In this document: piece after piece, positions 8,707 through 35,925 of the stretch | Layout of the letters: every line of letters begins with the position of its first letter | How positions within the stretch are numbered: position 1 is the stretch's first letter | Source of the DNA: an uncultured Candidatus Saccharibacteria bacterium | GTDB taxonomy: Bacteria; Patescibacteriota; Saccharimonadia; CAILAD01; GCA-016700035 | Length of the DNA: 64,000 bases | Direction of reading: 5' to 3' | Assembly: GCA_964583675.1 (NCBI GenBank) | Contig: CAZOVH010000003.1 | Location: 12,167 to 76,166 of the forward strand | Notes under the pieces: generated by a model | Told to the model about the DNA's origin: nothing | What the model saw: only the letters and a program-made list of their open reading frames with translations | Database searches by the model: none | Position numbers and translations under genes: made by a program

Positions 8707-9138
8707 TTACGCAGCAGACTTCTGGTCTGTGGATGGCGCCGAAGAATCAGCTCCTTTTACCATGCCAAGATGCTTACGGACAATATGCACCACATCAGCC
8801 ATCGCCACCTGACTTTTAACCAAGTAATCATCAACTCCAAGCGCCTTAGCTTTAGCGATATCTTTATCACTAGAAAGCGCAGACATCATAATAATTTTAG
8901 CGTGCTGAGTTTGTGGGGTATTGCGTAAGATATCCAAAACATCAAAACCAGATACACGAGGCATCATAACGTCTAGCAAAATCAAGTCGGGCTTTGACTC
9001 AACTACTCGAGCTAGTGCATTTTCACCATTCTCTGCCCAGGCCGTATTAAAGCCCTCAGCTTCAAAGCGAGCACGATATACGCTCGCGAGCTCAGCATCA
9101 TCTTCTACAAGTAAAATGGTTGGTGTCTTATCGGTCAT
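8707..9138 (-). CDS. Stand-alone response-regulator receiver domain (CheY-like)
   Basis: ILLVEDD...DLILLDVMMP...MSAL..D...K are the phospho-acceptor Asp and conserved receiver residues. There is no output domain. Confidence 0.8.
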   Translation of the reverse strand: MTDKTPTILLVEDDAELASVYRARFEAEGFNTAWAENGENALARVVESKPDLILLDVMMPRVSGFDVLDILRNTPQTQHAKIIMMSALSSDKDIAKAKALGVDDYLVKSQVAMADVVHIVRKHLGMVKGADSSAPSTDQKSAA

Positions 9139-9142: not shown

Positions 9143-10798
9143 CTAGACTTTCCTCCTCTGCATAGTTGTTACGTCTATTGTAGACTTCTCGGTCTCGGAA
9201 TGCAAAAGGCGGGAGGCAGCAGCCACAAAGCCATCAAACAGTGGATTTGGTGTCATCGGGCGCGAGGTAAACTCCGGATGGAACTGGCTCGCGATGAAAA
9301 ACGGATGATCTGGGTACTCAATCATTTCTACCAAATTCCCATCAGGTGAAAGCCCTGAAAATACCATTCCCACAGCCTCCAAACGGTCACGATAGCGATT
9401 GTTTACTTCATAACGATGACGATGACGCTCATGAATCAAGCCTTTGCCGTAGAGCTCATAGCCCAAAGATCCTTCCTTAATCGCTGTCGGATAATCACCA
9501 AGTCGCATTGAGCCGCCTAGCCGCACGCCCTGCTGATCTTCCATCAAGCTCACTACTTGATGCTCAGTATCATGATTAAATTCGAGTGAATGCGCAGTCT
9601 CTAAGCCAACCAGATTGCGCGCTGCTTCAATGACCGCAATCTGTAAACCAAGGCAAATTCCTAGGTACGGTACTTTGTTTTCGCGTGCATATTGAGCGGC
9701 CACAATCTTGCCAGCTACACCCCGCTCACCAAAACCTCCCGGCACCAAAATACCATCCAGTCCCTCAAGCGGCTTCACGGTATCCACCAATTTTTCGGCA
9801 TCCACCCACACCACCTTAATAGCTCGCCCATGCTTCCAACCGGCTGCCTTCAGTGCCTCTACAACCGACATGTAGGTATCTTCGTGATCAAGATACTTAG
9901 CAACGATACCGATACTCACTTCGGGCTTCTTGGAGCTCACAACATCTGCTAATTTATACCAGTCAGCTAGCTGTGGCTCAGCAACGCGCAAGCCCAGCCG
10001 CTCAATGATGTAATTGCCTATGCCTGATTCCTCCATCCGTAGCGGCACTTCGTACACACTCTTCAATGTTGGTAAGCCAACAATCGCTTCTTTATCAACG
10101 TCACAGTACATAGAAAGCTTTTCGAATACCGAGGCCTTTAATTCGTGGTCGGTGCGGACAGCCAGGATATCCGGCTGAATACCAGCCTCCCGTAAGTCAC
10201 GCACAGAATTCTGAGCTGGCTTAGTTTTGATCTCTTTACTGGCCGCGAGATATGGCAAAAAGACCACGTGTGTGTACAAAACGTTATCAGCGCCCACACG
10301 TCTCTTAAATTGACGTAGCGCTTCTATAACCGCTAGAGACTCGTAGTCACCAATGGTTCCACCAACTTCACATAGCAATACATCAAAGCCACGAGCTGCC
10401 TCAATAATGCGACGCTGGTATTCATCGGTAATATGCGGGATTACTTGCACTGTTTTCCCTAAAAATACACCGTCGCGCTCATCGGCGAACACCTTTGCAT
10501 ACACTTGTCCGCTCATAACAGAACTGCTTCGGGTGAGATTAATGTCGATAAAGCGCTCATAGTGCCCAAGGTCTAGATCAGTCTCGCCACCATCAGCGGT
10601 TACAAAGACTTCGCCGTGTTCTGCTGGATTTAGCGTTCCGGCGTCAAAATTAAAATACGGGTCCATTTTTTGAATGTTGACCCGTAACCCTCTGGCTTTT
10701 AAAATAGCGCCGATTGACGCCGCGGTGATTCCTTTACCGGAGCCCGAAACAACGCCTCCAGTAACAAAAATATATTTTGGTGTTTTTACCACGCTCAC
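9143..10798 (-). CDS. pyrG: CTP synthase
   Basis: 551 aa. N-terminal synthetase domain (KYIFVTGGVVSGSGKGI) and C-terminal glutamine amidotransferase (GICLGLQ). Confidence 0.95.
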   Translation of the reverse strand: MSVVKTPKYIFVTGGVVSGSGKGITAASIGAILKARGLRVNIQKMDPYFNFDAGTLNPAEHGEVFVTADGGETDLDLGHYERFIDINLTRSSSVMSGQVYAKVFADERDGVFLGKTVQVIPHITDEYQRRIIEAARGFDVLLCEVGGTIGDYESLAVIEALRQFKRRVGADNVLYTHVVFLPYLAASKEIKTKPAQNSVRDLREAGIQPDILAVRTDHELKASVFEKLSMYCDVDKEAIVGLPTLKSVYEVPLRMEESGIGNYIIERLGLRVAEPQLADWYKLADVVSSKKPEVSIGIVAKYLDHEDTYMSVVEALKAAGWKHGRAIKVVWVDAEKLVDTVKPLEGLDGILVPGGFGERGVAGKIVAAQYARENKVPYLGICLGLQIAVIEAARNLVGLETAHSLEFNHDTEHQVVSLMEDQQGVRLGGSMRLGDYPTAIKEGSLGYELYGKGLIHERHRHRYEVNNRYRDRLEAVGMVFSGLSPDGNLVEMIEYPDHPFFIASQFHPEFTSRPMTPNPLFDGFVAAASRLLHSETEKSTIDVTTMQRRKV

Positions 10799-10847: not shown

Positions 10848-12044
10848 CTATTGGCGTACGGCTTCGAGAGCCTTCTCTAGCTGCGGATCTCGGCCTGCAT
10901 TGGAGTCCTCAGGCGTCAATTTAACTTCAATGTCAGGCTTAATACCTTCTTTAGAAATATTCACACCCTTAGGCGTAAACCAACCGGCTACGGTTACTTT
11001 CAACTGAGCGCCATTTGAAAGTTGCTTAACCTCTTGGACACTACCCTTGCCATACGTCTTCTCGCCAACCAAAATCGCACGATCATTATCCTTCAGCGCG
11101 CCAGCCGTTATCTCAGAAGCCGAGGCAGATCCTTCATTAATGAGTATCACAAGCTTCGCATTCGTCAAGTTACCACCCGGATTTGCCACCAGCTGTTTAG
11201 ACTCCATATGGCGACCACGCTCCTCCACCACTACGCCGTCTGCCAAGAACTCTGAAGATACAGTAACTGCACTATTGAGATACCCGCCGGGATTATCACG
11301 AAGATCGAGCACAATTTTATCAACGCCCTGTTTCGCTAAGTCGGCTGCCGCGTTACGAATGGCCGTGTCTGTATCGTCGCCAAAACGACGTACACGAATG
11401 TAACCCACATCCCCATCTTTTACCTCATATTTGACGCTTGAAACCTGAATTTGATCGCGAGTTATCGCGAGTTCTTTTGGCTCTTCACCCTCACGCACAA
11501 CCGTCAACTTTACTTCAGTGCCTTTTTCGCCACGGATTTTTTTGACGGCTTCATCGAGAGTTAACTCGCTCGTACTCTGTCCATCTATGGTCGCAATAAC
11601 ATCACCAGCCCGAATACCAGCTTTCGCGGCCGGAGTTTCATCAATGGGCGCGATAACCGTCAGTCGATCATTCTTGAGACCAACTTCAACGCCAATTCCC
11701 GAAAGTTGGCCAGCTAAGTCATTAGAGAGCTCCTCTGCCTCACTTGCGTTAAGATACACCGTATACGGATCACCGAGACTCGCGACATAGCCACGTAGCG
11801 CCCCTTCAGCTTGCTTCTCATCATTTAGGTCACCGTTGAAACTCGACTCAAGAATAGACCGAATTTCACGAAACTGTTCAGAAGTAGCTGCCGCTGTATT
11901 GGTGCGCGCAACAACTGCCTTATACCCAAATACACCAATTACACCACCAATAAGTACTAAAGCAGCAATCCAGCCAGCTAACTGCAGTCTCGTTAAACTT
12001 ACACCAGGTTTCTTAACCGGTGATTGTGTATCTTTTTCACCCAT
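10848..12044 (-). CDS. ctpA: Carboxy-terminal processing protease (S41 family) with PDZ domain
   Basis: N-terminal TM, a PDZ segment (GIGVEVGLKNDRLTVIAPIDETPAAKAGIRAGDVI) and an S41 core (LVILINEGSASASEI). Confidence 0.85.
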   Translation of the reverse strand: MGEKDTQSPVKKPGVSLTRLQLAGWIAALVLIGGVIGVFGYKAVVARTNTAAATSEQFREIRSILESSFNGDLNDEKQAEGALRGYVASLGDPYTVYLNASEAEELSNDLAGQLSGIGVEVGLKNDRLTVIAPIDETPAAKAGIRAGDVIATIDGQSTSELTLDEAVKKIRGEKGTEVKLTVVREGEEPKELAITRDQIQVSSVKYEVKDGDVGYIRVRRFGDDTDTAIRNAAADLAKQGVDKIVLDLRDNPGGYLNSAVTVSSEFLADGVVVEERGRHMESKQLVANPGGNLTNAKLVILINEGSASASEITAGALKDNDRAILVGEKTYGKGSVQEVKQLSNGAQLKVTVAGWFTPKGVNISKEGIKPDIEVKLTPEDSNAGRDPQLEKALEAVRQ

Positions 12045-12086: not shown

Positions 12087-13214
12087 CTAATGAATAAACA
12101 CCAGCGAACTCACAGGCCAAACGGATTGAGAATACCGACCACCCCAATCGGCGTTAAATTCAGAAACCAGTACTTGTGTACCATTGGAGACAATCCCCTC
12201 AACAATCATGACATGCCCATACTCGCCAACTGGATAGACTGCGGCTGCTCCCACTTCTGGTGTGGTATCGACACGCATACCAAACTTCCCAGCCCAATCT
12301 GGCCATTGCTTCGCATTCGCTGGCCCCAAGAAGCCCCAAGCGGGCAGCGGCCGACCAATACTCGCCCGTTTCCAAGCAGCATAACTTGTGCACTGACGAT
12401 AATAAAAACCCCACGGATCAACACCACGACTCGGAAAAGGCTCCACAGCAGCCCATGGATAGTCAGTAGTCATCGTAAAATCGCGACCTAAGCTCTGAGC
12501 CGCAATCGCGGCTGTCTGTTGTGCCCGCAACGTCTCGAGCCGCATGGTATCAACCTCGACAAGAGCACGATAGGCAGCTTCGTCACCCCGAGTCTTGGCG
12601 AGAAGTTCTGCCTGTTCGGCCTCCTTGGCGACAATAGCTTTTTCTTCTAATCCTTCCTGTTCTTCTTTAATGCGTAGCTGTCGAGAAAATTCTTCGAGCT
12701 GTTTTTTGGCATTCTTTATGCTATCTACATTATCCATAATCTTATTGCGCAGAGAGTCGTAATATTCTTGTCGTCCCACAAAATCGGACAAATTCTCGCT
12801 GGAAGCAAACACCTCCATCGGCGTAACGTCGCCCTGCTTGTAGGCGGCGGCAATGTTCTGACGCAGCAGCTCCGTGCTTTTTTGCAGATTAGCTTCGGTA
12901 TTTTTGCGATCAAGCTTCGTTTGCTCAATACGTAAACGCGTAAGCTCAAGGTTTGACCGAGCAGCAGATAGCTCAGCCTGAATAGCTGTTAAGCGATTTT
13001 GCAGAGTATCACCTTCAACCTGTTTTTGATTTACCACCGCTTGATTATCCTGAATTTGCTTAGTTACCGCATCAATGAGCGGCTGCAAGTCATCGGCGTG
13101 CGCTGGACGAGCCTGATACCACACCGAGGCTGAAACTACAAAAACAAACAAGAAAAGCCCAGCGAATACGATTCGAAAAGCTTTTCCTGCTGTTTTTTTG
13201 TTTTTTGTAGCCAT
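12087..13214 (-). CDS. Coiled-coil plus C-terminal CHAP-domain peptidoglycan hydrolase (PcsB-like), paralog 2
   Basis: N-terminal TM or signal, about 200 aa of heptad-rich coiled coil, then a CHAP domain (WGFYYRQCTSYAAWKRA...GHVMIVEG) with the Cys/His pair. It lies directly downstream of ftsEX. Confidence 0.75.
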   Translation of the reverse strand: MATKNKKTAGKAFRIVFAGLFLFVFVVSASVWYQARPAHADDLQPLIDAVTKQIQDNQAVVNQKQVEGDTLQNRLTAIQAELSAARSNLELTRLRIEQTKLDRKNTEANLQKSTELLRQNIAAAYKQGDVTPMEVFASSENLSDFVGRQEYYDSLRNKIMDNVDSIKNAKKQLEEFSRQLRIKEEQEGLEEKAIVAKEAEQAELLAKTRGDEAAYRALVEVDTMRLETLRAQQTAAIAAQSLGRDFTMTTDYPWAAVEPFPSRGVDPWGFYYRQCTSYAAWKRASIGRPLPAWGFLGPANAKQWPDWAGKFGMRVDTTPEVGAAAVYPVGEYGHVMIVEGIVSNGTQVLVSEFNADWGGRYSQSVWPVSSLVFIH

Positions 13215-13234
13215 TTTTTAGAAATTACTGTTAG

Positions 13235-14374
13235 CTATTTGATAAACCTGGCGTTCCCCAACTGACTCATCGGTATGGTGCGTACAGAGTAGCCACCACG
13301 CGGACTATAGTTATACTCACTCACCGTAATCGAGTTACCATTATTAGACTCAACGATTGCCACGTGCCCCCATGGACCATCTGGCCAGGCTACAATGTCG
13401 CCGTAACCAGGAGTTGCACTAGCACTTCCTCGTGGCCACCACTGATTAGCATTGCCCCAATAACGCGGCACCATTCGCCCGATACTGGCGCGCTTCCAAG
13501 CAGCGTAACTCACACATTCTCGGTTGTAATACCCATAGTCATCAACCAAGCTATCCTGTGCTGCCCTACACCAAACATCCGGATAACCACCACCACACTG
13601 GCCGCCAGCCCTAAAGCTTCCACCGGCTGCGGCATTACGGCGAATTTCTTCAGCGCGGGCTGCAAATACCGCCGCGAGCTGTGATTCATTTTGCTTGACG
13701 ATGCCCTGATAGGCAGCTTCTTCACCTCGTGTCTGCGTTAAGAGGGCCTGCTGTTCAGACCGCTTTGCAGCAATATTGGCTACTTGAGCTTTCTCATCAG
13801 CGGCTTTTTCTGTTAAAGTAACCTTTTTCTGCTCGAGTTCAGCCTTCAATCGATTAATTTCAGAAATATTGGACTCAATCTTGTCCTTCAAATCATCCAT
13901 ATATTGCTGCTTACCTACAAAATCCGAGAGGTTTTCACTTGAAGCTAAGACTTCGATCGGCGTAACGTCACGATCCTTATACATGGTCTTGAGATTTTGC
14001 TTGAGGTTATCTACCTGTTTTGTTAGTTCGGCATTCTGACGATCAAGCTCTTCAGTGGTCTTCGTAATTTCAGTACGCGTCAGATTAAGTGCACTCTGCG
14101 CGGCAGAAATTTCTGCGTTTAGAGCCGCAACTTTAGCTTGTAAAGTATCACCTTCGGCTCGCTTTTGATTGGCTGAGTTTTTATTCTGATTAATCTGATT
14201 ACGCAACGCATTAATTTGCGAATCATAATCAACTGCAAAAGCAGTTGGCGCCAAAACGCCAAGCACACCAACAATCGCCAGCACAACTAGTGTTCTAGTG
14301 AGTCGTTGGTGTTTTTTTGTAGTCTTTTGGTGTCGAATCAAGATCATCACCCTCCTTTTTGCTTCTACCCCCAT
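13235..14374 (-). CDS. Coiled-coil plus C-terminal CHAP-domain peptidoglycan hydrolase (PcsB-like), paralog 1
   Basis: Same architecture as paralog 2: coiled coil followed by a CHAP domain (YGYYNRECVSYAAWKRA...GHVAIVES). It sits immediately after ftsX. Confidence 0.75.
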   Translation of the reverse strand: MGVEAKRRVMILIRHQKTTKKHQRLTRTLVVLAIVGVLGVLAPTAFAVDYDSQINALRNQINQNKNSANQKRAEGDTLQAKVAALNAEISAAQSALNLTRTEITKTTEELDRQNAELTKQVDNLKQNLKTMYKDRDVTPIEVLASSENLSDFVGKQQYMDDLKDKIESNISEINRLKAELEQKKVTLTEKAADEKAQVANIAAKRSEQQALLTQTRGEEAAYQGIVKQNESQLAAVFAARAEEIRRNAAAGGSFRAGGQCGGGYPDVWCRAAQDSLVDDYGYYNRECVSYAAWKRASIGRMVPRYWGNANQWWPRGSASATPGYGDIVAWPDGPWGHVAIVESNNGNSITVSEYNYSPRGGYSVRTIPMSQLGNARFIK

Positions 14375-14422
14375 ATATATTCTGAAGCAGTAAGCATTAC
14401 CGTTAGTCTATCACAGAATACG

Positions 14423-15334
14423 CTAAAGCTTCAAATGGCGTGAGATTGCTAGGAAGCTCGAAAGCGTACCAATTACAATTCCTAAAGTATACATTGCAAG
14501 CGTCACCAAAAATATACGATCAGTAACAAAAGTTACGACATCACTGGCGTTAAAATAGCTCGTAAAGAGCGGTCGCGCCACATTAATCAGCGGCAAAGTT
14601 ATGGCCATCGCTATAGTTGCACCAATAATGCCATACATCGCCCCCTCAATGAGAAATGGCCCACGAATATACCAGTTAGTTGCTCCAACCAGCTTCATAA
14701 TCTCGATTTCCTCACGACGCGTAAAGATCGCCATACGGATAGTATTAAAGATTATCATCAGACTAATTAAGAGGAAGGCGACAGAGATTACCGTACCTAC
14801 CTTTGAAACACCGTTCGAGATAGAAACAATACGATCAACTACTTTGCGCCGAACATCACTGTCATCATTACTTGTACTTGCCACAATTACCGCCGCGCCA
14901 TCAGCTTTAATCTGACTATTAAGTGAATCAAGGTTCTCAAGTGTTTCGGTACGAACCTCTAATGATGCTGGTAACGGATTACCAATCTCCGTGGCGGTCT
15001 TGGCGAGCTGCTCCCCATCTTTTGAACTAGTACGTAGTCGCTCGAGCGCATCCGTTTTGGATACGTAGCGCACCTCCGCTACATTCTCAAAGGTTTGAAT
15101 ATTGGCCTGCAGCTGCTTCACCTGGTCTGGTGTAGCTTCATCTTTCAAGAATACCGTGAGGTCAATTTTCTCTCGAACTGCCGCTAGCTGATTCTGCAAG
15201 AAGAGTGCCGAGAAAGCAAAGAAAGCCACGATAACTAATGTAACCACCATAATCGCAGTGGCCGCTATCGAAAGCCATGCGTTGCGGAACAAGTTCCGAA
15301 AACCAGTCTTAAACATGCGCCACAGCGTAATCAT
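14423..15334 (-). CDS. ftsX: Cell division ABC transporter permease FtsX
   Basis: Four-TM topology with a large first extracytoplasmic loop. It is located downstream of ftsE. Confidence 0.85.
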   Translation of the reverse strand: MITLWRMFKTGFRNLFRNAWLSIAATAIMVVTLVIVAFFAFSALFLQNQLAAVREKIDLTVFLKDEATPDQVKQLQANIQTFENVAEVRYVSKTDALERLRTSSKDGEQLAKTATEIGNPLPASLEVRTETLENLDSLNSQIKADGAAVIVASTSNDDSDVRRKVVDRIVSISNGVSKVGTVISVAFLLISLMIIFNTIRMAIFTRREEIEIMKLVGATNWYIRGPFLIEGAMYGIIGATIAMAITLPLINVARPLFTSYFNASDVVTFVTDRIFLVTLAMYTLGIVIGTLSSFLAISRHLKL

Positions 15335-15362
15335 TATCGTCTTACCCTCCTAATCCAATCCG

Positions 15363-16043
15363 TTATAGAACGTAACGTCCTACTTTTTCGTCTTTCAAAA
15401 TACGCCCATTCTGAATCGTAATCACGCGGCGCTTCAGAGCATTCACAATTTCTTTATTATGAGTGGTCAAAAGTACAGTTGTACCAAACTTGTTAATCTT
15501 CAAAAGCAGCTCAATGATATCCCATGAGTTTTTCGGGTCCAAGTTTCCAGTTGGCTCATCGGCAATCAGAATCTTTGGGTTTCGCACCAAGGCCCGCGCA
15601 ATTGCCACGCGCTGCTTTTCACCACCAGAGATTTCTTTAGGATAATTATTGGCCTTTTCGGCCAAACCAACCAGCTGCAAAATTTTTGGTACCGCACGCT
15701 TAATTTCAGAGGTTCTCACGCCGCTAGCCTCGAGTGCAAAAGCAACATTCTCGTACACAGTAAGGTTAGGGAGTAGTTTAAAATCCTGAAACACCACCCC
15801 AATTCGACGACGCAGATGCGGAATGCTGGTTTTGCCAATCGTGTCGTAATCGATTGAGCCAACAATAATTTTTCCACTCGTCGGAACTTCTTCTTTAATG
15901 AGTAGACGAATAAGTGTTGACTTACCCGCACCAGATGAGCCTACCACTGTTACAAACTCTTTTGGCTGTATATGCAAACTGACGCCCGACAAAGCGACCG
16001 TCTTATTTGGATACATCACTGAAACTCGATCAAGTAAAATCAC
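15363..16043 (-). CDS. ftsE: Cell division ABC transporter ATP-binding protein FtsE (GTG start inferred)
   Basis: Walker A GSSGAGKST, signature LSGGEKQRVAIARAL and Walker B ILIADEPTGNLD. A GTG at 16043 gives the N-terminus MILLDRVSVMY, matching the canonical FtsE N-terminus. The longer ORF running to 16445 is rejected. Confidence 0.88.
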   Translation of the reverse strand: MILLDRVSVMYPNKTVALSGVSLHIQPKEFVTVVGSSGAGKSTLIRLLIKEEVPTSGKIIVGSIDYDTIGKTSIPHLRRRIGVVFQDFKLLPNLTVYENVAFALEASGVRTSEIKRAVPKILQLVGLAEKANNYPKEISGGEKQRVAIARALVRNPKILIADEPTGNLDPKNSWDIIELLLKINKFGTTVLLTTHNKEIVNALKRRVITIQNGRILKDEKVGRYVL

Positions 16044-16122
16044 GTATGCACCTATTTTAGCATATGCGCTTGAGCTTGTGCACGACTGCATGAGGCAAAT
16101 AAAGCCTGCTACAATAAGCAAT

Positions 16123-17376
16123 ATGACAAAGCTTGTAATTACCGGTCCAACCCGTTTGCAAGGCGAATGGTTTACAGCGGGCTCAAAAAACGCCGTACTA
16201 CCAATGCTGGCTGCCTGCCTCTTAACGAAAGAAAAAGTCACAGTCGAAAATGTGCCGCGCATTTCAGACGTTGATGTAATGCTAGAAATTTTAGCTTCAC
16301 TTGGGGCGAAGGTCTGGCGCGAAGGCCATACTGTTACTGTTGAGGCAGACAATCTAACCACCGCCACTATTCCCGATGAACTCACAGCAAAAATGCGCGC
16401 TTCTGTACTTATTTTAGGAGCAGCAGTTGGCCGACTCGGTAGCATTACAGCAGCTCAACCCGGTGGCGACATCATTGGCGCGCGCCCACTAGCCTCACAC
16501 CTCAAAGCTTTTCAGGCGATGGGGCTATCAGTTATTCGTGAGCAAGGCCACATTACGGTATCCGGCAAACCCCAGGGCGGACGCGTGGTACTTGGTGAGC
16601 TCACTGTAACCGGCGCCGAAAATGCAATTATGGCCGCTGTACTTGCTACTGGCGTAACCGAGCTACGTATGGTTGCCCTGGAGCCTCATGTAGTCGATCT
16701 CTGTCTCATGCTGCAACAAATGGGCGCTAAAATTGAGGGCATTGGCACCCACAACCTCATCATTCATGGCGTCGAAACACTCAATGGTACGCTTTTCCGA
16801 GTGCCACCAGATCAACTAGAAAGCGGCACAATTGCGATTGCGGCGGCGGCCTCACGTGGCGATGTGATTATTCATGATTTTATTCGCGATGAACACGATG
16901 TGCTCCTCACCCTATTTGATCAAATCGGCGTGCAATATCAGTTGCCAAACCCCAAAACAATCCATATCCTCCCCGGTGGTGACTATCAGGCAGTAAATGT
17001 GCGTACTCAGCCTTATCCAAACTTCCCGAGTGATTTGCAGGCACCCTTGGCCGTTCTACTGACGCAGTGCGCCGGCACCTCCGAAATTTTTGAAACTCTC
17101 TATGAAGGCCGCTTGCAATACCTCTTTGAGCTGCAGCGTATGGGCGCAGCCGTAGCTATCCGCGACACCCACACCGGACTCATCACTGGTCCAACACCAC
17201 TAGCCGGGGCGGATCTCGTTAGTTTTGATATTCGCGCCGGAGCCACCATCCTCATCGCCGCGCTCATCGCGCAAGGTAAAACGATGATTGACCGCATCGA
17301 ACACATCGACCGCGGCTATGAACGGATTGAAGAGCGGCTCCAGGCTCTCGGCGCCCAACTCCAGCGCATTAACTAA
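16123..17376 (+). CDS. murA: UDP-N-acetylglucosamine 1-carboxyvinyltransferase
   Basis: MTKLVITGPTRLQGEWFTAGSKNAVLPMLAA... is a full-length MurA fold. The true ATG is at 16123, inside the longer listed ORF. Confidence 0.9.
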   Translation: MTKLVITGPTRLQGEWFTAGSKNAVLPMLAACLLTKEKVTVENVPRISDVDVMLEILASLGAKVWREGHTVTVEADNLTTATIPDELTAKMRASVLILGAAVGRLGSITAAQPGGDIIGARPLASHLKAFQAMGLSVIREQGHITVSGKPQGGRVVLGELTVTGAENAIMAAVLATGVTELRMVALEPHVVDLCLMLQQMGAKIEGIGTHNLIIHGVETLNGTLFRVPPDQLESGTIAIAAAASRGDVIIHDFIRDEHDVLLTLFDQIGVQYQLPNPKTIHILPGGDYQAVNVRTQPYPNFPSDLQAPLAVLLTQCAGTSEIFETLYEGRLQYLFELQRMGAAVAIRDTHTGLITGPTPLAGADLVSFDIRAGATILIAALIAQGKTMIDRIEHIDRGYERIEERLQALGAQLQRIN

Positions 17377-18467
17377 TTTTTCTGTTCGTCTGATAAATTA
17401 TGCGTCAAATAGGCTTCGATAAATGGCTCAATCGCGCCACCTAGCACCGCATCCGTATCGCTAGTTTCATAATCTGTACGATGATCTTTTACTTTCTTGT
17501 AGGGGTGCAATACATAGCTACGAATTTGCTGGCCCCAGTCGGCTGACTGAACTTTTCCACGAAGCTCAGCCACAGAATCTAGATGCTGTTCGCGTGCCAA
17601 CTCAGCGAGCTTTGCCACTAAAATTGACATCGCCTTATTTTTATTCTTGAGCTGTGAGCGTTCATTTTGGATTGAAACCACAATACCAGTTGGAATGTGA
17701 GTAATACGCACCGCCGAATCAGTCGTATTTACGCTCTGGCCACCATGCCCACCAGCGCGAAATACATCAATGCGCAAATCTTTTTCATCAAGTTCTATCT
17801 GCTCCATCGGGATTTCAGGAATTACATCAACCAACGCAAAACTGGTTTGGCGCAAACTATCACTATTAAAGGGCGAGAGCCTCACCAAACGATGGACACC
17901 CTTTTCACTTTTCAGCTTGCCAAACGCAAAAGGCCCTTCAATTTCCAGTGTGGCAGATTTTATACCTGCTTCTTCTCCTCGCGAAATATCAACTAATTTA
18001 GCTGTTAGCTCAAGCTTTTCTGCAGCCTTGGTATACATAGTCAGCAGCATTTCCGCCCAATCTTGTGCGTCTGTACCGCCAGCTCCTGCCGAAACCTGTA
18101 CAATTGCCGTGTTCTTATCATAATCTCCGGCCAGCTTTACCGTTATCATCATCTGGCGTACCGACTCTTCCATGCTAGCCGTAGACTCCTCCATCGCATC
18201 CAATAACGACTCATCCGACATCTGCGCGAGCTCAAGCATAGTCTGTATCGACTCCTCCATTGTTTGCCAGCTCTCAATAAATTTACGTAGTAATGCAGCC
18301 TCTTGGCTGACCTTTTGGGCTTCCCCTTGATCAGACCAAAAATCAGGTGCATTCATGCGAGCTTCTAGCTCGGCAAGCACCTTTTCTTCACTCTCTAGAT
18401 TAAGCTGACGGATTGCGCCCTGCACTTCTTCTAGGAGGTTTGTCAGTCGGTCAATAATTGGCTTCAT
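17373..18467 (-). CDS. prfB: Peptide chain release factor 2; no programmed +1 frameshift site seen
   Basis: SPF tripeptide (RLSPFNSDS) and the GGQ motif. The ORF is continuous from Met through the region where the frameshift normally sits. Confidence 0.9.
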   Translation of the reverse strand: MKPIIDRLTNLLEEVQGAIRQLNLESEEKVLAELEARMNAPDFWSDQGEAQKVSQEAALLRKFIESWQTMEESIQTMLELAQMSDESLLDAMEESTASMEESVRQMMITVKLAGDYDKNTAIVQVSAGAGGTDAQDWAEMLLTMYTKAAEKLELTAKLVDISRGEEAGIKSATLEIEGPFAFGKLKSEKGVHRLVRLSPFNSDSLRQTSFALVDVIPEIPMEQIELDEKDLRIDVFRAGGHGGQSVNTTDSAVRITHIPTGIVVSIQNERSQLKNKNKAMSILVAKLAELAREQHLDSVAELRGKVQSADWGQQIRSYVLHPYKKVKDHRTDYETSDTDAVLGGAIEPFIEAYLTHNLSDEQKN

Positions 18468-19762: not shown

Positions 19763-19995
19763 ATGAGACTCCTTTCTTTCGCGACGTGAAGTCGGAAAGC
19801 GCTTATGGTTATTTAACATTTATGCGTGTGGTCAATCTCTGTAATAATTGCAGTGTGTATGCTGTAGTTGTAAAGGTTTATTGTTCGCGTAGGTGAACAA
19901 TTACCTATAAATATTATCATACTTAAGCTTTTTTGTCAATACTTTTTGTCAGCTAAATATGTCAGTGTCAACAGATTTGACTCAATAAAAGTGAA

Positions 19996-20022
19996 GGAGC
20001 GGACGCATGTAGCGTCCGCTCC
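19996..20022 (-). terminator. Perfect 11-bp stem, 5-nt loop hairpin at the 3' end of the high-GC block (terminator for the island transcription unit)
   Basis: GGAGCGGACGCatgtaGCGTCCGCTCC. On the minus strand it is followed by a T-rich tract. It lies about 35 nt downstream of the stop of the 20058-21143 gene. Confidence 0.6.
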
Positions 20023-20057
20023 TGATGAACCTGAACACCCTTCTAGGGACTACCGGG

Positions 20058-21143
20058 CTAGGCCGGCGCCCCAGGGTCTCCGGGCTCGTTGACCGGCTGA
20101 GGCGTGGCCTCGGTCGGTTCCGGATCGTCGAAGCCGGTGTTGCCACCGGTCTCGCCATTGGTGTCGCCGGGGCTCATGTTGCCGCCCGGCGGGATGATCA
20201 CTCCGTCAGCCGGATCGGCTGCCGAGTCCTCGGCGTTCCCCGGGACGTAGTCCGGAGTGGGCGGGAGTGGCTCGGTGTCCACGTGGGAAGGATGGTTGTT
20301 ACCACCCGAACCACAGACACCGTCCGCCATCAGCTCCGCCGTGCACTTCCACGTCGTGGTGGGAGCCTCGGGCGTGGTCACGGGCGTGACGGGCTGTCCG
20401 GGCTTGCCTGGCGTCACGGGCGTGACGGGCTGTCCGGGCTTGCCTGGCGTCACCGGCCGCGAGGGCTGGTTTGGCGCAGGCGGAGCACCCTTGCCGGGCA
20501 CGCTCGGCGGGAAGTTCTGCTCGACGGGCTGGTACCCGCAGTTGAGCTTGAACTGCTTCACGGTCCCGTCCGGGAACGTGAAGCGGATCACCTTGAACGG
20601 CGCGGCTTCGACCGGGACCTGGTAGATCTCGGGGATGATTCTCCCCTTGTCCTCCATGTCCATGGTCTGGTACGCACCGCTCATCTCGACGATCTCCACC
20701 TTGACGGCCTCGTTGAGGCGCGCTTGGAAGCGCATCTCGCTGAGAGCCCAGGCATCGGGGTTCGACATGAGGTCGACCGTCTTCTGGACTCGAGTCGGCG
20801 CATCCGAGAACTCGTTGAAGAGGTACTCGGAGTCACCCACGAGGAGCGCGGCGTCAGAGCAGCGTCGCGAGGCGAAGTCCGCCTGCGTTGCTGCCACATT
20901 GGCCGGATCCTCCGGAGCGGCGGGGCCGAACTGGTTCCCGCTCGTCTCGCGAGCGAAGAACATCTGGTTGACGCCGCACGTACCAGCCGGAGCCGGAATG
21001 GTCGTGGTGGTCGGGTCGTCGTCGGCACCCACGTCGATGATCGTCCTGCTCGCCCCGAAGGTGAGCAGTGCGAGGAGCAGCAGCCCGGCACCGAAGTACC
21101 AGAACGACTGCTGCCGCTTGGCAGGTGTGTCCATGAAGGCCAT
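20058..21143 (-). CDS. Island gene 3: single-TM, Pro/Gly-rich secreted or membrane-anchored protein with a tandem PGKPGQPVTPVT repeat
   Basis: 361 aa. N-terminal TM (FWYFGAGLLLLALLTFGA), strong GC3 bias and coding on the same strand as its neighbours. Confidence 0.6.
   Translation of the reverse strand: MAFMDTPAKRQQSFWYFGAGLLLLALLTFGASRTIIDVGADDDPTTTTIPAPAGTCGVNQMFFARETSGNQFGPAAPEDPANVAATQADFASRRCSDAALLVGDSEYLFNEFSDAPTRVQKTVDLMSNPDAWALSEMRFQARLNEAVKVEIVEMSGAYQTMDMEDKGRIIPEIYQVPVEAAPFKVIRFTFPDGTVKQFKLNCGYQPVEQNFPPSVPGKGAPPAPNQPSRPVTPGKPGQPVTPVTPGKPGQPVTPVTTPEAPTTTWKCTAELMADGVCGSGGNNHPSHVDTEPLPPTPDYVPGNAEDSAADPADGVIIPPGGNMSPGDTNGETGGNTGFDDPEPTEATPQPVNEPGDPGAPA
20377..20448. repeat. Perfect 36-bp tandem duplication (2 copies plus a partial third) inside island gene 3
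   Basis: gtcacgggcgtgacgggctgtccgggcttgcctggc occurs at 20377-20412 and again at 20413-20448. It encodes a repeated PGKPGQPVTPVT unit. Confidence 0.9.
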
Positions 21144-21298
21144 GAGGCCCCCTTTCGTTTGAGCGCTTTTAGCGCGGGATGTTCAGGTTCTGGTTCTGAC
21201 TTCAAGCATTCATCTCTGTTTTACCAAAGGTTCACGTTCAAGGCCAGAATAAAACCAAAAGTGTGTCCCCTGGAGCCCGAAGGCCCCAGGGGGAGGGG

Positions 21299-22102
21299 TC
21301 AGTTCGTCGACGCACTGGCTGCGGCTGCAGCCTGCACGGTCTGGAACTGGGTCCCCGTGGGAGGCGGAGGCGGGATGACCGCATCCGGAGTCAACACGAC
21401 CGGCTGCGGCGGTACTGCCACCTGAGCCGGAGTCGGAGCTGCGGGTGCCGGAGCGGGCGGCTGTGCGGGGATGGTGTTCACTCCCGCCGCTGCTCCCGCA
21501 TGCACCTGCGTGACGCCGTGGAAGGCGCCGCCACCGACCAAGCCGGCGACGATGCCGGCGACGATGAGGCCTGCCGCACCGGACAGGACCAGGTCCCTCC
21601 AGAGCGGGAAGTTTCCCAGAGCTTCCAGGAACAACCACGCGATGAAGAAGGCTCCGATGCCTGCCACGATGGGCTGCCACCAACCACTGCTGAGACGATG
21701 CTGCAGCTGTGTGATCGCAGTGGCGTGAGCTTCCGAGTGGGCCTGCAGCCCGTCGACGCGGCTGCCCAGACCGAGAACGTTGTTCTCGACGGTGCCGACG
21801 CGACCGGTCAGGTTGTCCAGATCTTGACGAACGTCGCTGAGCCGCTGCAGGATGTCCTGTCGCTCGTTGCCGCGCTCGGCGATCTGGTTCTCCAGGCGCT
21901 CGATCTCCGTTCGGACGATCTCGCGCATGGCCTCACTGGCCGCTTGGGTCAGCTCGGCGTTGCGCTCGGTGATGAGCCCGTTCAGGCGCTGTAGCTCCTG
22001 GTCGACCCCTCCGAGTCGACGCGTGAGGGTGTCGTGCTCGGCACGGTGTTGCTGCGCGAGCAGCACCTCTGTGTGTGTGGTTCGTTCGGTTCGGTTTGCC
22101 AT
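21299..22102 (-). CDS. Island gene 2: coiled-coil protein with two C-proximal TM helices and a Pro-rich tail
   Basis: 267 aa. Heptad-rich N-terminal half, TM segments (WWQPIVAGIGAFFIAWLFL and LIVAGIVAGLVGGG), then a PAQPPAPAPAAPTPAQ tail. High GC3. Confidence 0.55.
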   Translation of the reverse strand: MANRTERTTHTEVLLAQQHRAEHDTLTRRLGGVDQELQRLNGLITERNAELTQAASEAMREIVRTEIERLENQIAERGNERQDILQRLSDVRQDLDNLTGRVGTVENNVLGLGSRVDGLQAHSEAHATAITQLQHRLSSGWWQPIVAGIGAFFIAWLFLEALGNFPLWRDLVLSGAAGLIVAGIVAGLVGGGAFHGVTQVHAGAAAGVNTIPAQPPAPAPAAPTPAQVAVPPQPVVLTPDAVIPPPPPTGTQFQTVQAAAAASASTN

Positions 22103-22288
22103 GTCCCCTCCCGGGGTGTGTTGTGCCGGGGTTTTTCAACACCCGGGTTGAGGTACGAATACCGTTGCATAATAGCATAAAATACATAATTTTGCAATAG
22201 TTTTATGCAAAGTCAATATGCTTATGCCAAAGATAATTGACAAAAAAAATTGGGCGACCTGGTGTTACCCAGGTCGCCCAGTGTGAAA

Positions 22289-23920
22289 TCAGGCAGCGCT
22301 CTGCCGTCCAGACTCCACAAGAATGCGCCTCTCCGCCTCGGCACGAACCGCATCTGCCGAGCGGAATGCCCAACACTGCTCAGGATCAAGATCCTCAATC
22401 ACTGCCTTGACGGCAGCCTCGAAAACCTCATCCGGCAGTTCGACCAAGAAGGACTCGTCCGACTTCCGCTTACGGCGACTCGCGTCACGATCAGCACCGT
22501 CAGCTGGTCCATCCGTCTGAGGCTGCTGAGCGTCCGGCTCTTCGGCTGAATCGCTGGACTGCCGCCCCGCAGCTGGCGCCTTCGGAGCTGGCCGCATCGC
22601 AACCCTGCCTCCCCCCTGCACCACATGGCGCTGAGGCTCGGGAGCATCACTGCTGCTGACGGTACGACGACCCTCACTCATCCGGACAACAGGGACCGGC
22701 TGAGTGGGGGGACCCCCTTCGGGTTCCTTCGGGGCACCACTGTTTGCGGCACCCGTCACAGACTCGGAAGGGGGTGTGTCGTCCGTCGAGCTGCTCGCCG
22801 GCTCCTCGGATGCGGGTCGAGGCGGCGGAACCGCACCAGACCGTACGAATGCAGACCTGCGAGCAGAGCGGCGCTGAGCCCTCTCGTAGCCGTCACGCAG
22901 GAAGACCTCGTTGGGCCAGGTGAAGTCTTCCAACTCCTTCTGGACCGAGGTAGTCCCTTCGGCAACCCGAGCCGCACTGCGCACGGCCTGGCGATTGAAC
23001 CAAGCCTTTGCAGCGAGGTTCTGACCCTCCCCCCTCAGCTCAGCCTGGGCATCCTGCTCGAGTTCTTCTCGAGTCAACGATTCTGGCCGGCCCTGACCCT
23101 CTTCCTTCTTGAGCTGGAAGAGGTAGCGCTCGATTTCGAGTTCATCCTCGATGCCGAGTTCCTCGTAGAGCGACCAACCGTACTGATAGATGGCAATGGC
23201 AAGCTCACCGAGAGCCTTTTCGGCCGCCTCCTTGTTGCCGCGAAGACGAGCATCGGCAGCCACCTGAAGGTACGGTCGCAGTGGCTCGCGATAGGAGTCG
23301 AGTTGAGGCTCGCCATCCGCAAGCGGTGCCGGTGCGTCCGCAGTGGCTTCGGGCTCCGGAGACGGAGGCGTCTCACCGCTGTCCGCCGGATCGCTGTCAG
23401 GTGCCGAAGCACTCGGGGCGTCCTGATCGAAGGGCTGCAGGGCAGCACCATCGGCTGCAGCCGGCTGGGCCGGCTGTTCACCAATGAATCGGTCGACGGC
23501 GGAGGCAAGCGTGTTCGAGACGAACTGGTTGCCGTTGCGAATGGCCTGCCTCTCCTCGCCCTCTTCGAGATCCTCGTTGAGGATCTCCTCCAAGAGCTCG
23601 AGAGCTGACGCCTCATCCAGCAACGGATCGGTCTCCATCAACCTTTCGGTCAGATGGGAAGCACGAAGCTGAATCCTACGAGGCGCAGGAGGTGTGGCTT
23701 CAGCCGCCTCATCGGCGGTGCCATCAGCGGGGTCTGTGAGGTGTTCTTCGTCGGCCATGACGGCCTCCTGTTCTCCGGCTGTGCCGGGGTTGGGGCCATC
23801 TTCGGCCGGGGTTGCGCCACCACACAGGGCGGCAACTTCATCGGGATTGAGCTGGGAGAATTCATCCATGCTCATTCCGGACCTGCCTTCACTCATGCTG
23901 TACCTCATCTGCTGTGTCAA
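22289..23920 (-). CDS. Island gene 1: large acidic Pro/Ala-rich protein, function unknown
   Basis: 543-aa ORF from a TTG at 23920. The more likely start is the ATG at 23896 (MSEGRS) with a GAGGT RBS 5 nt upstream. High GC3. Upstream lies an AT-rich promoter-like island (23921-24001). Confidence 0.55.
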   Translation of the reverse strand: MTQQMRYSMSEGRSGMSMDEFSQLNPDEVAALCGGATPAEDGPNPGTAGEQEAVMADEEHLTDPADGTADEAAEATPPAPRRIQLRASHLTERLMETDPLLDEASALELLEEILNEDLEEGEERQAIRNGNQFVSNTLASAVDRFIGEQPAQPAAADGAALQPFDQDAPSASAPDSDPADSGETPPSPEPEATADAPAPLADGEPQLDSYREPLRPYLQVAADARLRGNKEAAEKALGELAIAIYQYGWSLYEELGIEDELEIERYLFQLKKEEGQGRPESLTREELEQDAQAELRGEGQNLAAKAWFNRQAVRSAARVAEGTTSVQKELEDFTWPNEVFLRDGYERAQRRSARRSAFVRSGAVPPPRPASEEPASSSTDDTPPSESVTGAANSGAPKEPEGGPPTQPVPVVRMSEGRRTVSSSDAPEPQRHVVQGGGRVAMRPAPKAPAAGRQSSDSAEEPDAQQPQTDGPADGADRDASRRKRKSDESFLVELPDEVFEAAVKAVIEDLDPEQCWAFRSADAVRAEAERRILVESGRQSAA

Positions 23921-24001
23921 TTTCGGAATAAATTGTCAGGTGCAAAAAACACAAAAACCATACCACAAATTTGCAATATGGTCAATGTTTATTGGTTGCG
24001 C

Positions 24002-31707: not shown

Positions 31708-31725
31708 GCCTTTATTATACCACCC

Positions 31726-33282: not shown

Positions 33283-33319
33283 ATGCTTTTCCTATTTTAC
33301 CAGTTTTTTATCTCTTCAT

Positions 33320-33350
33320 AAGAAAAACCACCTGCTTACGAGGTGGCTTT
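33320..33350 (-). terminator. Rho-independent terminator downstream of greA
   Basis: On the minus strand the sequence reads aaagCCACCTcgtaagcAGGTGGttttt. Confidence 0.6.
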
Positions 33351-33374
33351 CAGGCGATGCTTCGGCTGCTTGTG

Positions 33375-33836: not shown

Positions 33837-33867
33837 AATAACTCCTTGCACCCTCCTAGTAGTGGAA

Positions 33868-33903
33868 ACATTTCTAAGAAAAAAAGGCCTCAATCCTGAG
33901 CCT
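33868..33903 (-). promoter_or_regulatory. Terminator-like hairpin plus U7 tract in the greA 5' leader (candidate attenuator)
   Basis: The minus strand reads aGGCUCaggauuGAGGCCuuuuuuu about 35 nt upstream of the greA ATG. A TTGACG...AATAAT promoter-like element lies further upstream, at about 33935-33965. Confidence 0.3.
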
Positions 33904-33990: not shown

Positions 33991-35925
33991 CTATTTCTTA
34001 CCTTCGGTGAAATACCACTTAAGAGAGTCTCGTACTACTGGTAGAGCAAATTCAGCTCCTTCTCCAGAGTTTTCTACCAGTGCCACAATAACGATTTCGG
34101 GATTTTCATACGGAGCATAGGCCTCAAACCAAGCGTGAGGCTTGGTACGCCGGTTTTTACCATCAAAGCCCTCCGAACTTGTCTCGGCCGTTCCGGTCTT
34201 ACCTGCTACCGCTACAGGCACCTCACGACTCGTTGAACAACAGCCAGTTCCCGACGTAATCACATCACGCATGCCTTTTTGTACCATACTTAAATACTCT
34301 GGCTTAATAAAATCAGAACGAACCTTCTGTGAATCCACCGAACGCACTGTTTTTCCATTCTCATCCACTACTTCCTTGACTAAATACGGCTTATATAGCG
34401 TGCCGCCATTAGCAATAGAGGAAAGAGCTGTTGCTAGCTGTAATGGGCTGGCCATAAAATTCCCCTGACCAATCGAGATATTGTAGGTATCACCCACATA
34501 CCAATCCTCGCCAGTATTTTTCTTTTTCGTCTCTGGAGTCGGCAAAAATCCAGCCGTTTCGTCACCAATATCTAATCCAGTTTTGGAACCAAATCCAAAC
34601 TTTTTGTAATAGTCCAGCAATTTAGCCGCACCAAGACCCTTAAAATTCTGATAGCCACCACCGACCATGTAGTAAAACACATCCGAACTCATCGCGAGCG
34701 CTCGATATACATCAACCATACCCAAACCTTCGGGCTTCCAACTAGAAAACTCGTACACTATCGAAGGGTCATACTGGTTGGGCACCAAAAGCTCACCATC
34801 ATCTTTGATGACGGTCGAGGCATTAATAATGTTCTCCTGGAAAGCGGCCGCGGAAACAAATGGCTTAATTACCGAGCCAACGGGATACGTGCCACCCGAA
34901 ACCTTGTTGAATAATGGTCGGTTAGGGTCATTCAAGAGGCTTTGATACGTATCCTGCTTGATACCCTGTGCAAATAAGTTGTTATCGTAGCTTGGGTAAT
35001 TTACAGCCGCCAGAATTTGTCCGTTGCGGGGATCTAGAGCAACTGCCGCACCTCGACCAGAGCCAGCAGCCGTGGCTTCGCGAGCCAAGGCTTCGCTCAT
35101 AACTTTTTGCAAACCAAAATTGACTGTCAGTTTCAGCGAGTTGCCAGCAGTAGGATCTTTTGCAGCGAGAACCTTAATTGGCTTTCCAGTAGCGTCAACC
35201 TCAGATTGCTCGGCACCGGCTTCACCTCGTAAATCTTTCTCGTAGGCGCGCTCAATACCAACCTTACCGATATAGTCGGTTGGTCGATATTCCTTTTCTA
35301 CCTTCAAATCATCGGCAGAAACACGCCCTGTATAGCCCAGAAAATGCGCAAGCTGACCACCGTCCAAATATTCTCTAATTGGATTGGTGTCCAGGTCAAC
35401 ACCTGGAAGTTCATTCTTTTGCTCCTCAACCACCAAGGCAATTTCGCGCGGAACACTCTCCTGTATCAACGTCGGCAATGGTGAAGCTGGGCCGTCTTTT
35501 TCGACCTTTTGTTTAATCTCTTCGGCAGATTGCCCGGTAATTTTGCTCAGCCTCTCATAGACTTGCTGTCGCTCTTCGGTCTTCTTCGGCATACGAGCCG
35601 CTATCGCAACTAAATCAAAATTAGCCACGTTGCGGGCCAGAAGTTCACCCCGGCTATCGTAGATTGCACCACGAGGAGCTCGAATGACATTTTGCCGAAT
35701 GCGGTTACCGTCGGCCAGAGACTGATTACGTGCCCCCTGAACCACCTGCAGGTTAAATAGCTGCCCCAAAAGAACCGCACTTACGATGCCGGCCACAATC
35801 ACAAACCATTTCAGATGGCTAAAGCCCATTTCAGAGCCCGAGCGATTTTCACCACTACCAGGAAGAATCGCCACCGACCAAGCTTCACTATCGGTAACTT
35901 TCTGTTCCTTGCGAGACAATCTCAT
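33991..35925 (-). CDS. mrdA: Penicillin-binding protein 2 (class B transpeptidase, elongasome)
   Basis: N-terminal TM, dimerisation domain and transpeptidase motifs (SxxK, SxN, KTG: ...VAGKTGTAE). Sits upstream of greA and downstream of mreBCD. Confidence 0.85.
   Translation of the reverse strand: MRLSRKEQKVTDSEAWSVAILPGSGENRSGSEMGFSHLKWFVIVAGIVSAVLLGQLFNLQVVQGARNQSLADGNRIRQNVIRAPRGAIYDSRGELLARNVANFDLVAIAARMPKKTEERQQVYERLSKITGQSAEEIKQKVEKDGPASPLPTLIQESVPREIALVVEEQKNELPGVDLDTNPIREYLDGGQLAHFLGYTGRVSADDLKVEKEYRPTDYIGKVGIERAYEKDLRGEAGAEQSEVDATGKPIKVLAAKDPTAGNSLKLTVNFGLQKVMSEALAREATAAGSGRGAAVALDPRNGQILAAVNYPSYDNNLFAQGIKQDTYQSLLNDPNRPLFNKVSGGTYPVGSVIKPFVSAAAFQENIINASTVIKDDGELLVPNQYDPSIVYEFSSWKPEGLGMVDVYRALAMSSDVFYYMVGGGYQNFKGLGAAKLLDYYKKFGFGSKTGLDIGDETAGFLPTPETKKKNTGEDWYVGDTYNISIGQGNFMASPLQLATALSSIANGGTLYKPYLVKEVVDENGKTVRSVDSQKVRSDFIKPEYLSMVQKGMRDVITSGTGCCSTSREVPVAVAGKTGTAETSSEGFDGKNRRTKPHAWFEAYAPYENPEIVIVALVENSGEGAEFALPVVRDSLKWYFTEGKK

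Follow-up and report, generated by a model that had tools for sequence, protein, structure and literature searches.

The closest described relatives of the system considered here are those in which the ATPase FtsE and the membrane protein FtsX govern a coiled-coil wall hydrolase or hydrolase activator: PcsB in Streptococcus pneumoniae, EnvC in Escherichia coli, Vibrio cholerae and Pseudomonas aeruginosa, RipC in Mycobacterium and Corynebacterium, and CwlO in Bacillus subtilis. The pneumococcal pcsB gene is encoded away from ftsEX; the genes for RipC and CwlO, too, are not adjacent to ftsEX, and the catalytic head of these two proteins is an NlpC/P60 domain. Here we consider a stretch of 64,000 nucleotides (the window) from an uncultured Candidatus Saccharibacteria bacterium, positions 12,167 to 76,166 of contig CAZOVH010000003.1, in which ftsE and ftsX are followed by two tandem genes for putatively secreted coiled-coil proteins with a C-terminal CHAP domain (paralogs A and B), and then by ctpA, the gene for a protease with S41 and PDZ domains. 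Probably, this cluster encodes a wall-hydrolase machine of the Gram-positive FtsEX type, akin to that of PcsB, in which one FtsEX has two partners.

Like A and B, PcsB combines a signal peptide, a coiled-coil hairpin, an Ala-rich helix, a linker and a C-terminal CHAP domain with its Cys and His residues, and the pneumococcal FtsX, like the one encoded here, is of the Gram-positive type. On the other hand, the proteins share only about 19% identity, and the saccharibacterial locus differs in carrying its hydrolase genes directly downstream of ftsEX, with ctpA after them, and in supplying two partners with different CHAP subtypes. FtsEX-EnvC (6TPI, 8HD0, 8TZL) has in common with A and B a homologous coiled-coil hairpin, the tip of which corresponds to the two FtsX-binding sites of the EnvC complex, and a helix equivalent to the EnvC restraining arm (Cook et al., PMC7668044). 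EnvC itself, however, ends in a LytM/M23 domain that is degenerate and serves to activate separate amidases, whereas A and B, with their catalytically complete CHAP heads, should to judge from sequence cut peptidoglycan themselves. Unlike in the hosts of EnvC, an outer membrane is not expected here, and a gene for an LPXTG-type surface protein lies nearby.

FtsEX-RipC (8IDC, 8AUD) and CwlO follow the same logic, in which the coiled coil docks on FtsX and an autoinhibited head is released; RipC and the corynebacterial Cg1735 match A and B via the coiled coil and the overall layout only. As for the protease, the described parallels are CtpA-LbcA of P. aeruginosa and Prc-NlpI of E. coli, in which a C-terminal processing protease controls wall hydrolases; here, the gene for an S41/PDZ protease stands beside wall-hydrolase genes. 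In contrast to those systems, no gene for an adaptor lipoprotein is evident in the present cluster.

What is known of the phylum Saccharibacteria comes from epibionts with reduced genomes. The cluster names the likely division hydrolase system of these ultrasmall organisms, whose cell biology is largely unknown, and brings together in one small conserved gene cluster an ATPase, a membrane transducer, one or two hydrolases and a candidate turnover protease. It offers a compact natural system in which to consider how one FtsEX works with two partners, which coiled-coil residues specify docking, and whether C-terminal processing proteases police hydrolases bound to FtsEX. For Saccharibacteria, the literature that could be searched notes no more than the presence of FtsE and FtsX (PMC12592800); we found there no description of an FtsEX partner in these bacteria and no paper that pairs Saccharibacteria with the term "CHAP domain", several apparent matches to FtsX or CHAP being chaperones, host genes or entries in reference lists. 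The main text of a Tn-seq study of the cultivable Southlakia epibionticum (PMC10633639), for which natural transformation is available too, makes no mention of FtsX or peptidoglycan.

The cluster and its two PcsB-like proteins

FtsE and FtsX are bona fide. FtsE scores 272.9 bits against TIGR02673 (cut-off 264.85), aligned over positions 1-214 of 214, matches ABC_tran with an E-value of 3e-37, and shows a dN/dS of 0.004 between the window and the near-identical assembly L081. FtsX contains both the extracellular domain FtsX_ECD (PF18075, residues 59-143, E 2.8e-19) and the permease domain (PF02687, E 5e-16), scores 232.6 bits against the Gram-positive model NF038347 (FtsX_Gpos; cut-off 225), and is matched over its full length by the solved FtsX chains 8i6o, 8hd0, 8tzj and 8idb. 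CtpA carries Peptidase_S41 (PF03572, E 1.9e-53) and PDZ (E 1e-12) domains and is recognised by TIGR00225 at 339 bits (cut-off 218.6), with scores below the cut-offs of the named CtpA, CtpB and CtpC subfamilies (301-323 bits vs 625-665).

The arrangement described in an earlier note on this DNA, ftsE and ftsX followed by two tandem coiled-coil-CHAP genes and then ctpA, is found as given, and the five genes form a tight co-directional cluster on the minus strand (Table 1). The intergenic gaps from ftsE to ctpA are 28, 75 (48 to the upstream ATG of A), 20 and 42 nt, and a scan of the region found no terminator-like sites between these genes, which is weak evidence, the overall match count being at chance level. 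Of the two protein sizes in the note, 375 residues for B stands; 379 residues is correct for the open reading frame (ORF) of A, but the true protein is likely 370 residues long, since AAGGAGG lies ahead of the ATG at 14347 and the close homologs have this length. An assembly artefact is excluded by two independent metagenome assemblies, L081 and L082, in which the same nine-gene order is seen with proteins 95-100% identical.

A and B are 40% identical across their full length (E 5e-74). Each begins with a putative signal peptide, recognised by inspection (in B, a basic N-terminus and a hydrophobic core, with AHA and then DD), and AlphaFold models the N-termini as helices apart from the coiled coil (residues 12-30 in A). 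There follow ~200 residues predicted to be helical, a short linker that is Gly-rich or polar, and the CHAP domain (PF05257; E 1.9e-15 and 57.5 bits for A, E 1.7e-16 and 60.9 bits for B, against a cut-off of 26). In the AlphaFold models (mean pLDDT 82 each; pTM 0.70 for B), the helical region folds as two long antiparallel helices with a short tip helix between them (41-126, 130-136 and 140-240 in A), after which comes the CHAP fold. The catalytic Cys and His, the presence of which the note had left to be checked, are retained in both CHAP domains (Table 1), and family alignments of 122 and 96 sequences show no variation at the Cys, at the His or at the Asn of a Glu-x-Asn motif.

For both proteins, the top fold match in the PDB by Foldseek is pneumococcal PcsB (4CGK; E 3e-8 for A and 1.4e-9 for B, over ~360 aligned columns). 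Next, after isolated CHAP domains, come partners from FtsEX complexes: RipC (8idc_E), EnvC (6tpi_A and 8tzl_E) and Cg1735 (8aud). A profile of the family aligns over positions 12-365 to residues 8-389 of PcsB 4CGK (E 2e-23) and, via the coiled coil, to EnvC of E. coli (8hd0_E, E 6e-9) and of V. cholerae (E 1.6e-5). On this sequence evidence, A and B are homologs of PcsB over their whole length and of EnvC in the coiled coil. The earlier description of both proteins as PcsB-like is borne out by the putative signal peptide, the antiparallel coiled-coil hairpin, the CHAP domain with its Cys and His, and PcsB as best fold match. Pfam identifies the head as CHAP only, with no NlpC/P60 assignment, and gives no M23 match in either protein, the EnvC equivalog model scoring 15 bits vs 270. 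Members of the family are already labelled "CwlO-like" by the automated annotation of JGI.

Probable coupling to FtsX

We compared the locus with 80 species-representative loci and three further contigs (cited by their L numbers), the ORFs of which were typed against the proteins of the window; the homologs are labelled Saccharibacteria, Saccharimonadia or Patescibacteria. A coiled-coil-CHAP gene lies directly 3' of ftsX in 77 of the 80 loci holding both, the three exceptions being L017, where ftsEX is inverted, L037, where a coiled-coil-M23 gene stands between, and L070, which has a 2.4-kb insertion. The commonest order is prfB-ftsE-ftsX-hydrolase-ctpA-(pyrG)-response regulator. Given this synteny, a partner encoded in cis is the norm in Saccharibacteria. 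The note had started from the premise that a hydrolase gene beside ftsEX is unusual; it is near-universal here, and ftsX-envC adjacency has also been published for Fusobacterium nucleatum (PMC5915739). Directly after the hydrolase gene, ctpA follows in 75 of 79 loci, and it is from this conserved adjacency that we infer the link between CtpA and A and B as its substrates. A literature search for a published association of ftsEX with a ctp gene gave nothing useful; in B. subtilis, ctpB presumably lies near ftsEX.

The part of the hydrolases predicted to meet FtsX is the tip of the hairpin. Across the 122 family members, the tip block (Table 1) is the best conserved segment of the coiled coil, and A and B are 80-87% identical in 15-residue windows within it, vs 40% overall. 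In the family profile alignment, the block falls on PcsB 101-148, and Cook et al. (PMC7668044) predict that PcsB residues 101-114 and 130-148 correspond to the two sites at which EnvC contacts FtsX in the crystal structure of their complex. The Ala-rich helix of PcsB has likewise been equated with the autoinhibitory restraining arm of EnvC (PMC7668044); in A and B, an Ala-rich helix immediately precedes the linker.

A mirror-tree test on 68 single-copy loci, with a partial Mantel correlation controlling for the divergence of CtpA, FtsE and the transmembrane part of FtsX, separates the tip from the remainder of the protein. Distances in the tip correlate with those in the FtsX extracellular domain (r 0.48, p 0.001), while neither the rest of the coiled coil (r -0.03, p 0.65) nor the CHAP domain (r 0.01, p 0.44) shows such a relation. 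Since the tip alone co-varies with the extracellular domain of FtsX, docking on FtsX is supported, and among the present analyses this co-variation is the most specific computational support for docking via the tip. The coupling of both hydrolases to FtsEX that had been proposed earlier is thereby supported from two sides, synteny and the co-variation of tip and extracellular domain.

The mechanism that we propose follows the scheme already put forward for EnvC, PcsB, RipC and CwlO. The hairpin tip (DVTPxExxASSxNLSDFV and its flanks) would dock between two FtsX extracellular domains. Upon ATP binding and hydrolysis by FtsE, these domains would move, and the movement would pass along the coiled coil to free the CHAP head from autoinhibition by the Ala-rich arm, such that septal peptidoglycan would be cut only at the place and time of divisome activity. 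In the clade that carries both A and B, the two partners would share one FtsEX. CtpA most plausibly trims or degrades the hydrolases and would thus limit their lifetime, by analogy with the CtpA of P. aeruginosa, which degrades several cell-wall hydrolases (PMC8764530, PMC11021448). The hydrolases of this family end in a conserved hydrophobic motif (...ARFIK in A, ...LVFIH in B, consensus ...GLxFIHF), modelled as the last strand of the CHAP fold. Conceivably, the PDZ domain of CtpA might read out this motif.

Several points weigh against the picture just drawn. The Foldseek TM-scores to PcsB are low (0.23-0.26), as the long helices are packed differently, so that the PcsB match is local and architectural (3Di plus sequence) and does not amount to a rigid superposition. 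Matches of the paralogs to Pfam CC_PcsB fall just under the gathering score (19.5 and 24.8 bits vs 27), and the NCBIfam PcsB equivalog model NF046104 gives 64.4 bits for A and 35.1 for B against a cut-off of 450, which makes A and B distant relatives of PcsB and not its orthologs. In the mirror-tree test, the Mantel permutation removes shared phylogeny incompletely and the set of loci includes a cluster of near-identical ones, and conservation of the tip could be partly due to the structural needs of a hairpin turn. The role given to CtpA is pure analogy. Finally, the loci were gathered by similarity to the hydrolase, with genomes that lack it lying outside the sample. As the form of the cluster with one hydrolase is standard across the phylum, we regard the present one as a credible, rather ordinary division machine whose second partner is specific to the lineage. 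Its mechanism is expected to follow the PcsB/EnvC/RipC paradigm; it extends existing ideas and overturns none.

A probable second partner on the same FtsEX

The tandem of A and B is present in the near-identical assemblies L081 and L082 and in the four closest species loci, L001, L002, L003 and L008 (in the last of which A is cut by the contig end). Database clusters number 24 of the A type (60-98% identity) and 27 of the B type (56-97%), and at least ten further pairs of A-type and B-type clusters have longest contigs of equal size, suggesting a shared contig. The pair is stable, confined to one broad clade, and not strain-specific. With L081 as reference (synonymous sites are saturated against L008, L001, L002 and L003), A shows a dN/dS of 0.010 and B one of 0.021; both values lie inside the range of neighbouring housekeeping genes (0.004-0.053), and neither copy is decaying. 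Whether the duplication might be strain-specific and pseudogenised had been raised in the earlier note; instead, the pair is kept over a broad clade, with both genes intact and under strong purifying selection.

The same note spoke of a duplication. That A and B are paralogs holds, but they are not a recent tandem copy: the split is old, and the two have distinct CHAP subtypes. In a species proxy tree built from FtsE, FtsX and CtpA, the clade of the window is sister to L083 together with seven single-copy lineages. In the full-length neighbor-joining (NJ) tree of the hydrolases, A joins the single copy of L083 with 89% bootstrap, and A and B come out as sisters in 1% of replicates; in a tree of the linker and CHAP domain, A groups with L083, L084, L085 and L011 (96%) and B with L062 (97%). 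The timing of the duplication was unsettled until L083-L085 were added, an earlier NJ tree without them having given A and B as sisters at 31% and a grouping of B with tier2 and L062 at 44%. Insertions and deletions also distinguish the subtypes. The A type is a short-loop CHAP domain, without the 8-residue "aaGIPVD" loop, that keeps a cysteine pair (CGGGYPxxWC; CGGGYPDVWC in A itself), and the B type is a long-loop one, in which the loop is retained, WGFLGPANAK is inserted and the cysteine pair has been lost.

The simplest readings of the origin of the pair, from these trees, would be an old duplication followed by reciprocal loss, or lateral acquisition of one copy, and NJ trees on about 120-340 columns do not discriminate between the two. 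The tree of the coiled coil alone is ambiguous (A with B 46%, A with L083 45%). A scenario in which the coiled coils tracked the species tree or were gene-converted while the CHAP heads were swapped was rejected as unproven in view of this ambiguity. Tip identities give no hint that A and B have undergone gene conversion with each other: within a genome the two are 38-62% identical in the tip, vs 60-95% between orthologs; the coiled coil of A is closest to that of L083.

A and B differ unevenly along their length. Identity between them is 62% in the tip block, 47% in helix 1, 47% in the CHAP domain and 38% in helix 2, and falls to 23% in the Ala-rich arm and 18% in the linker. This pattern fits two proteins that share a predicted recruitment surface and a catalytic core and that have diverged in the presumed gating elements and the loops of the active site. 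Divergence of the arm, linker and CHAP loops beside a similar tip suggests that A and B likely differ not in recruitment but in how they are gated, in the bond or substrate that they prefer, or in both.

Second partners are seen elsewhere in the comparison set. Tandem coiled-coil-CHAP pairs follow ftsX in L026 (6022-8498) and L053 (6001-8397), lineages distant from the window; the second copy in L053 is highly divergent, its RECVSY motif not matched by regex, yet Pfam finds CHAP in it with an E-value of 5e-11. In three further loci, a coiled-coil gene with an EnvC-like Peptidase_M23 domain accompanies the coiled-coil-CHAP gene at ftsEX, between ftsX and the CHAP gene in L037 (4745-5959) and between prfB and ftsE in L047 (3305-4252) and L062 (2177-3274), and the coiled coil of two of the three matches Pfam CC_PcsB. 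A second FtsEX-type partner has been gained or kept several times in Saccharibacteria.

One could go further and regard FtsEX as a shared platform for interchangeable hydrolase heads, with partners competing for one FtsX site, C-terminal proteolysis by CtpA selecting the occupant, and patchy head types reflecting loss and exchange that match the chemistry of the cell's own wall or that of its host. This elaboration is tentative and, to our minds, rather doubtful. It rests on the pairs of partners found at single loci (short-loop with long-loop CHAP here, the CHAP pairs of L026 and L053, and M23 with CHAP in L037, L047 and L062), and CHAP head types are indeed patchy relative to the species tree.

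That one paralog, most plausibly the faster-evolving B, remodels or breaches the host wall or serves growth, leaving the other as the division hydrolase, is unlikely. Such a division of labor would be in keeping with the fact that A and B diverge most strongly in the arm and linker and in the loops round the CHAP active site, with the long stem branch of B, and with the predicted secretion of both proteins. B nevertheless retains the core of the FtsX-docking motif, and a Pfam domain search found no recognisable targeting or delivery domain in A or B. Moreover, B-type CHAP is the only CHAP-type partner at ftsEX in the nearest relatives of B (the L004, L005, L007, L009, L010 group, and L062, which also has an M23 gene), and the A type is the only copy in L083. 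Since related lineages carry either type alone, each can serve as the sole CHAP partner, which makes it less likely that one subtype is reserved for a role other than division.

An obligate heteromer of A and B on FtsEX, for example a PcsB-like heterodimer in which each CHAP head is held by the coiled coil of its partner, is quite improbable. The two genes are always adjacent and are co-retained across the clade, and PcsB crystallised with two chains (A and B of 4CGK), which we take to be a domain-swapped dimer. The FtsX dimer, too, has two binding sites, but EnvC binds as one coiled coil per two FtsX domains, leaving no room for a second hairpin (PMC7668044). A single copy suffices in most Saccharibacteria, and the identities of the A and B tips within a genome, given above, show no sign that the two are kept matched.

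Very improbable is simple redundancy, with A and B kept for dosage or robustness. The two do share architecture, catalytic residues, docking motif and gene cluster, and they are under similar constraint. Against this stand their 40% identity, the age of the split and the indel-defined CHAP subtypes, and the concentration of divergence in the presumed regulatory arm and linker. Both copies, furthermore, have been kept by strong purifying selection in many lineages, even where identity has dropped to 56-60%, and redundant copies rarely persist so. The least credible reading is that the hydrolases are independent of FtsEX and stand beside it by inherited synteny of envelope genes. The block does hold unrelated conserved neighbours as well (prfB, pyrG and the response regulator), which shows that genes can stay together without a functional link. 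Yet proven FtsX partners have coiled coils homologous to those of A and B, only the tip co-varies with the extracellular domain of FtsX, and in other species coiled-coil-M23 genes are found at this locus.

Gene neighbourhood and the wider window

Table 1. Positions of the cluster, its hydrolase domains and conserved neighbours in the 64,000-nucleotide window.
Feature	Position	Strand	Remarks
Promoter candidate, sigma-70-like	16082..16054	-	TGCACA-17-TAAAAT, extended -10 TG, upstream of ftsE
ftsE	16043..15363	-	226 aa, GTG start; ATPase subunit
ftsX	15334..14423	-	303 aa; membrane subunit with extracellular domain
Paralog A	14374..13235 (ORF)	-	ORF 379 aa; likely start ATG 14347 (370 aa); predicted secreted coiled-coil + CHAP hydrolase
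A signal peptide (putative, Sec-type)	14234..14347	-	Basic N-terminus, hydrophobic core, AFA then VD; by inspection
A hairpin-tip block	13883..14002	-	Residues 116-155, KQNLKTMYKDRDVTPIEVLASSENLSDFVGKQQYMDDLKD; putative FtsX-docking site
A CHAP domain	13238..13552	-	Cys278 13514..13516, His328 13364..13366, Glu344-x-Asn346 13310..13318
Paralog B	13214..12087	-	375 aa; predicted secreted coiled-coil + CHAP hydrolase
B hairpin-tip block	12744..12863	-	Residues 118-157, RQNIAAAYKQGDVTPMEVFASSENLSDFVGRQEYYDSLRN
B CHAP domain	12090..12428	-	Cys275 12390..12392, His334 12213..12215, Glu352-x-Asn354 12153..12161
ctpA	12044..10848	-	398 aa; S41 + PDZ, N-terminal membrane anchor or signal sequence
pyrG	10798..9143	-	Conserved neighbour downstream of ctpA
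Response regulator, single-domain	9138..8707	-	Conserved neighbour after pyrG

Upstream of the cluster, a listed ORF of 360 residues (15363..16445) is an upstream over-extension of ftsE, and the 217-residue ftsE calls of relatives are slightly short. The promoter candidate in Table 1 is the sole promoter-like site suitably placed, inside the ~80-nt divergent region shared with murA; it is a consensus match only, in a region where promoter-like matches occur at chance frequency (16 found vs 12.9 expected). Downstream, pyrG and the response regulator gene are co-directional with the cluster and closely spaced, and may be co-transcribed with it; they are outside the proposed mechanism.

Between prfB and ftsE, murA (16123-17376) lies on the opposite, plus strand, an arrangement seen in the clade of the window (the window, L002, L003 and L081). 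In most other Saccharibacteria loci, prfB stands directly upstream of ftsE, and it is inverted in L004, L005, L009 and L029. The convergent prfB and murA ORFs of the window overlap by 4 nt at their stop codons (17373..17376). Here prfB (18467..17373) is one uninterrupted ORF of 364 residues; in L029 (3132-4238) and L045 (3126-4212) the gene appears split into two adjacent ORFs, for which the programmed +1 frameshift of RF2 or a sequencing error is possible.

The LPXTG-type surface protein is encoded at 18572-19819 on the minus strand, with a DUF11/DUF7619 repeat, a Pro/Thr-rich stalk, a C-terminal LPQTG, a hydrophobic segment and a basic tail, and its gene is conserved upstream of prfB in relatives. 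Such a sortase-type anchor suggests a Gram-positive-like wall. Beyond it, positions 20000-24000 of the window have 60-66% G+C, vs 44-50% elsewhere, and carry long ORFs on both strands, a usual feature of GC-rich DNA. Three ORFs on the minus strand (20058..21143, 21299..22102 and 22289..23920) encode Pro/Thr/Ala-rich or acidic proteins with only weak, sub-threshold Pfam matches. The idea of a foreign island at 20-24 kb is weakened by homologs of the first of these ORFs at the same position, beside the LPXTG-type gene, in L081, L007, L029, L009, L005, L011 and L004.

A neighbourhood of secA, prfB and ftsEX is familiar from Firmicutes. In the window, secA (27459-30071, minus strand) lies ~9 kb from prfB and ftsEX, and beyond it (30481-35925) are genes for seryl- and lysyl-tRNA synthetases and a class B penicillin-binding protein (33991..35925). 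A tRNA gene at 2025-2108 on the minus strand is the only Rfam match above the gathering score in the 64-kb window.

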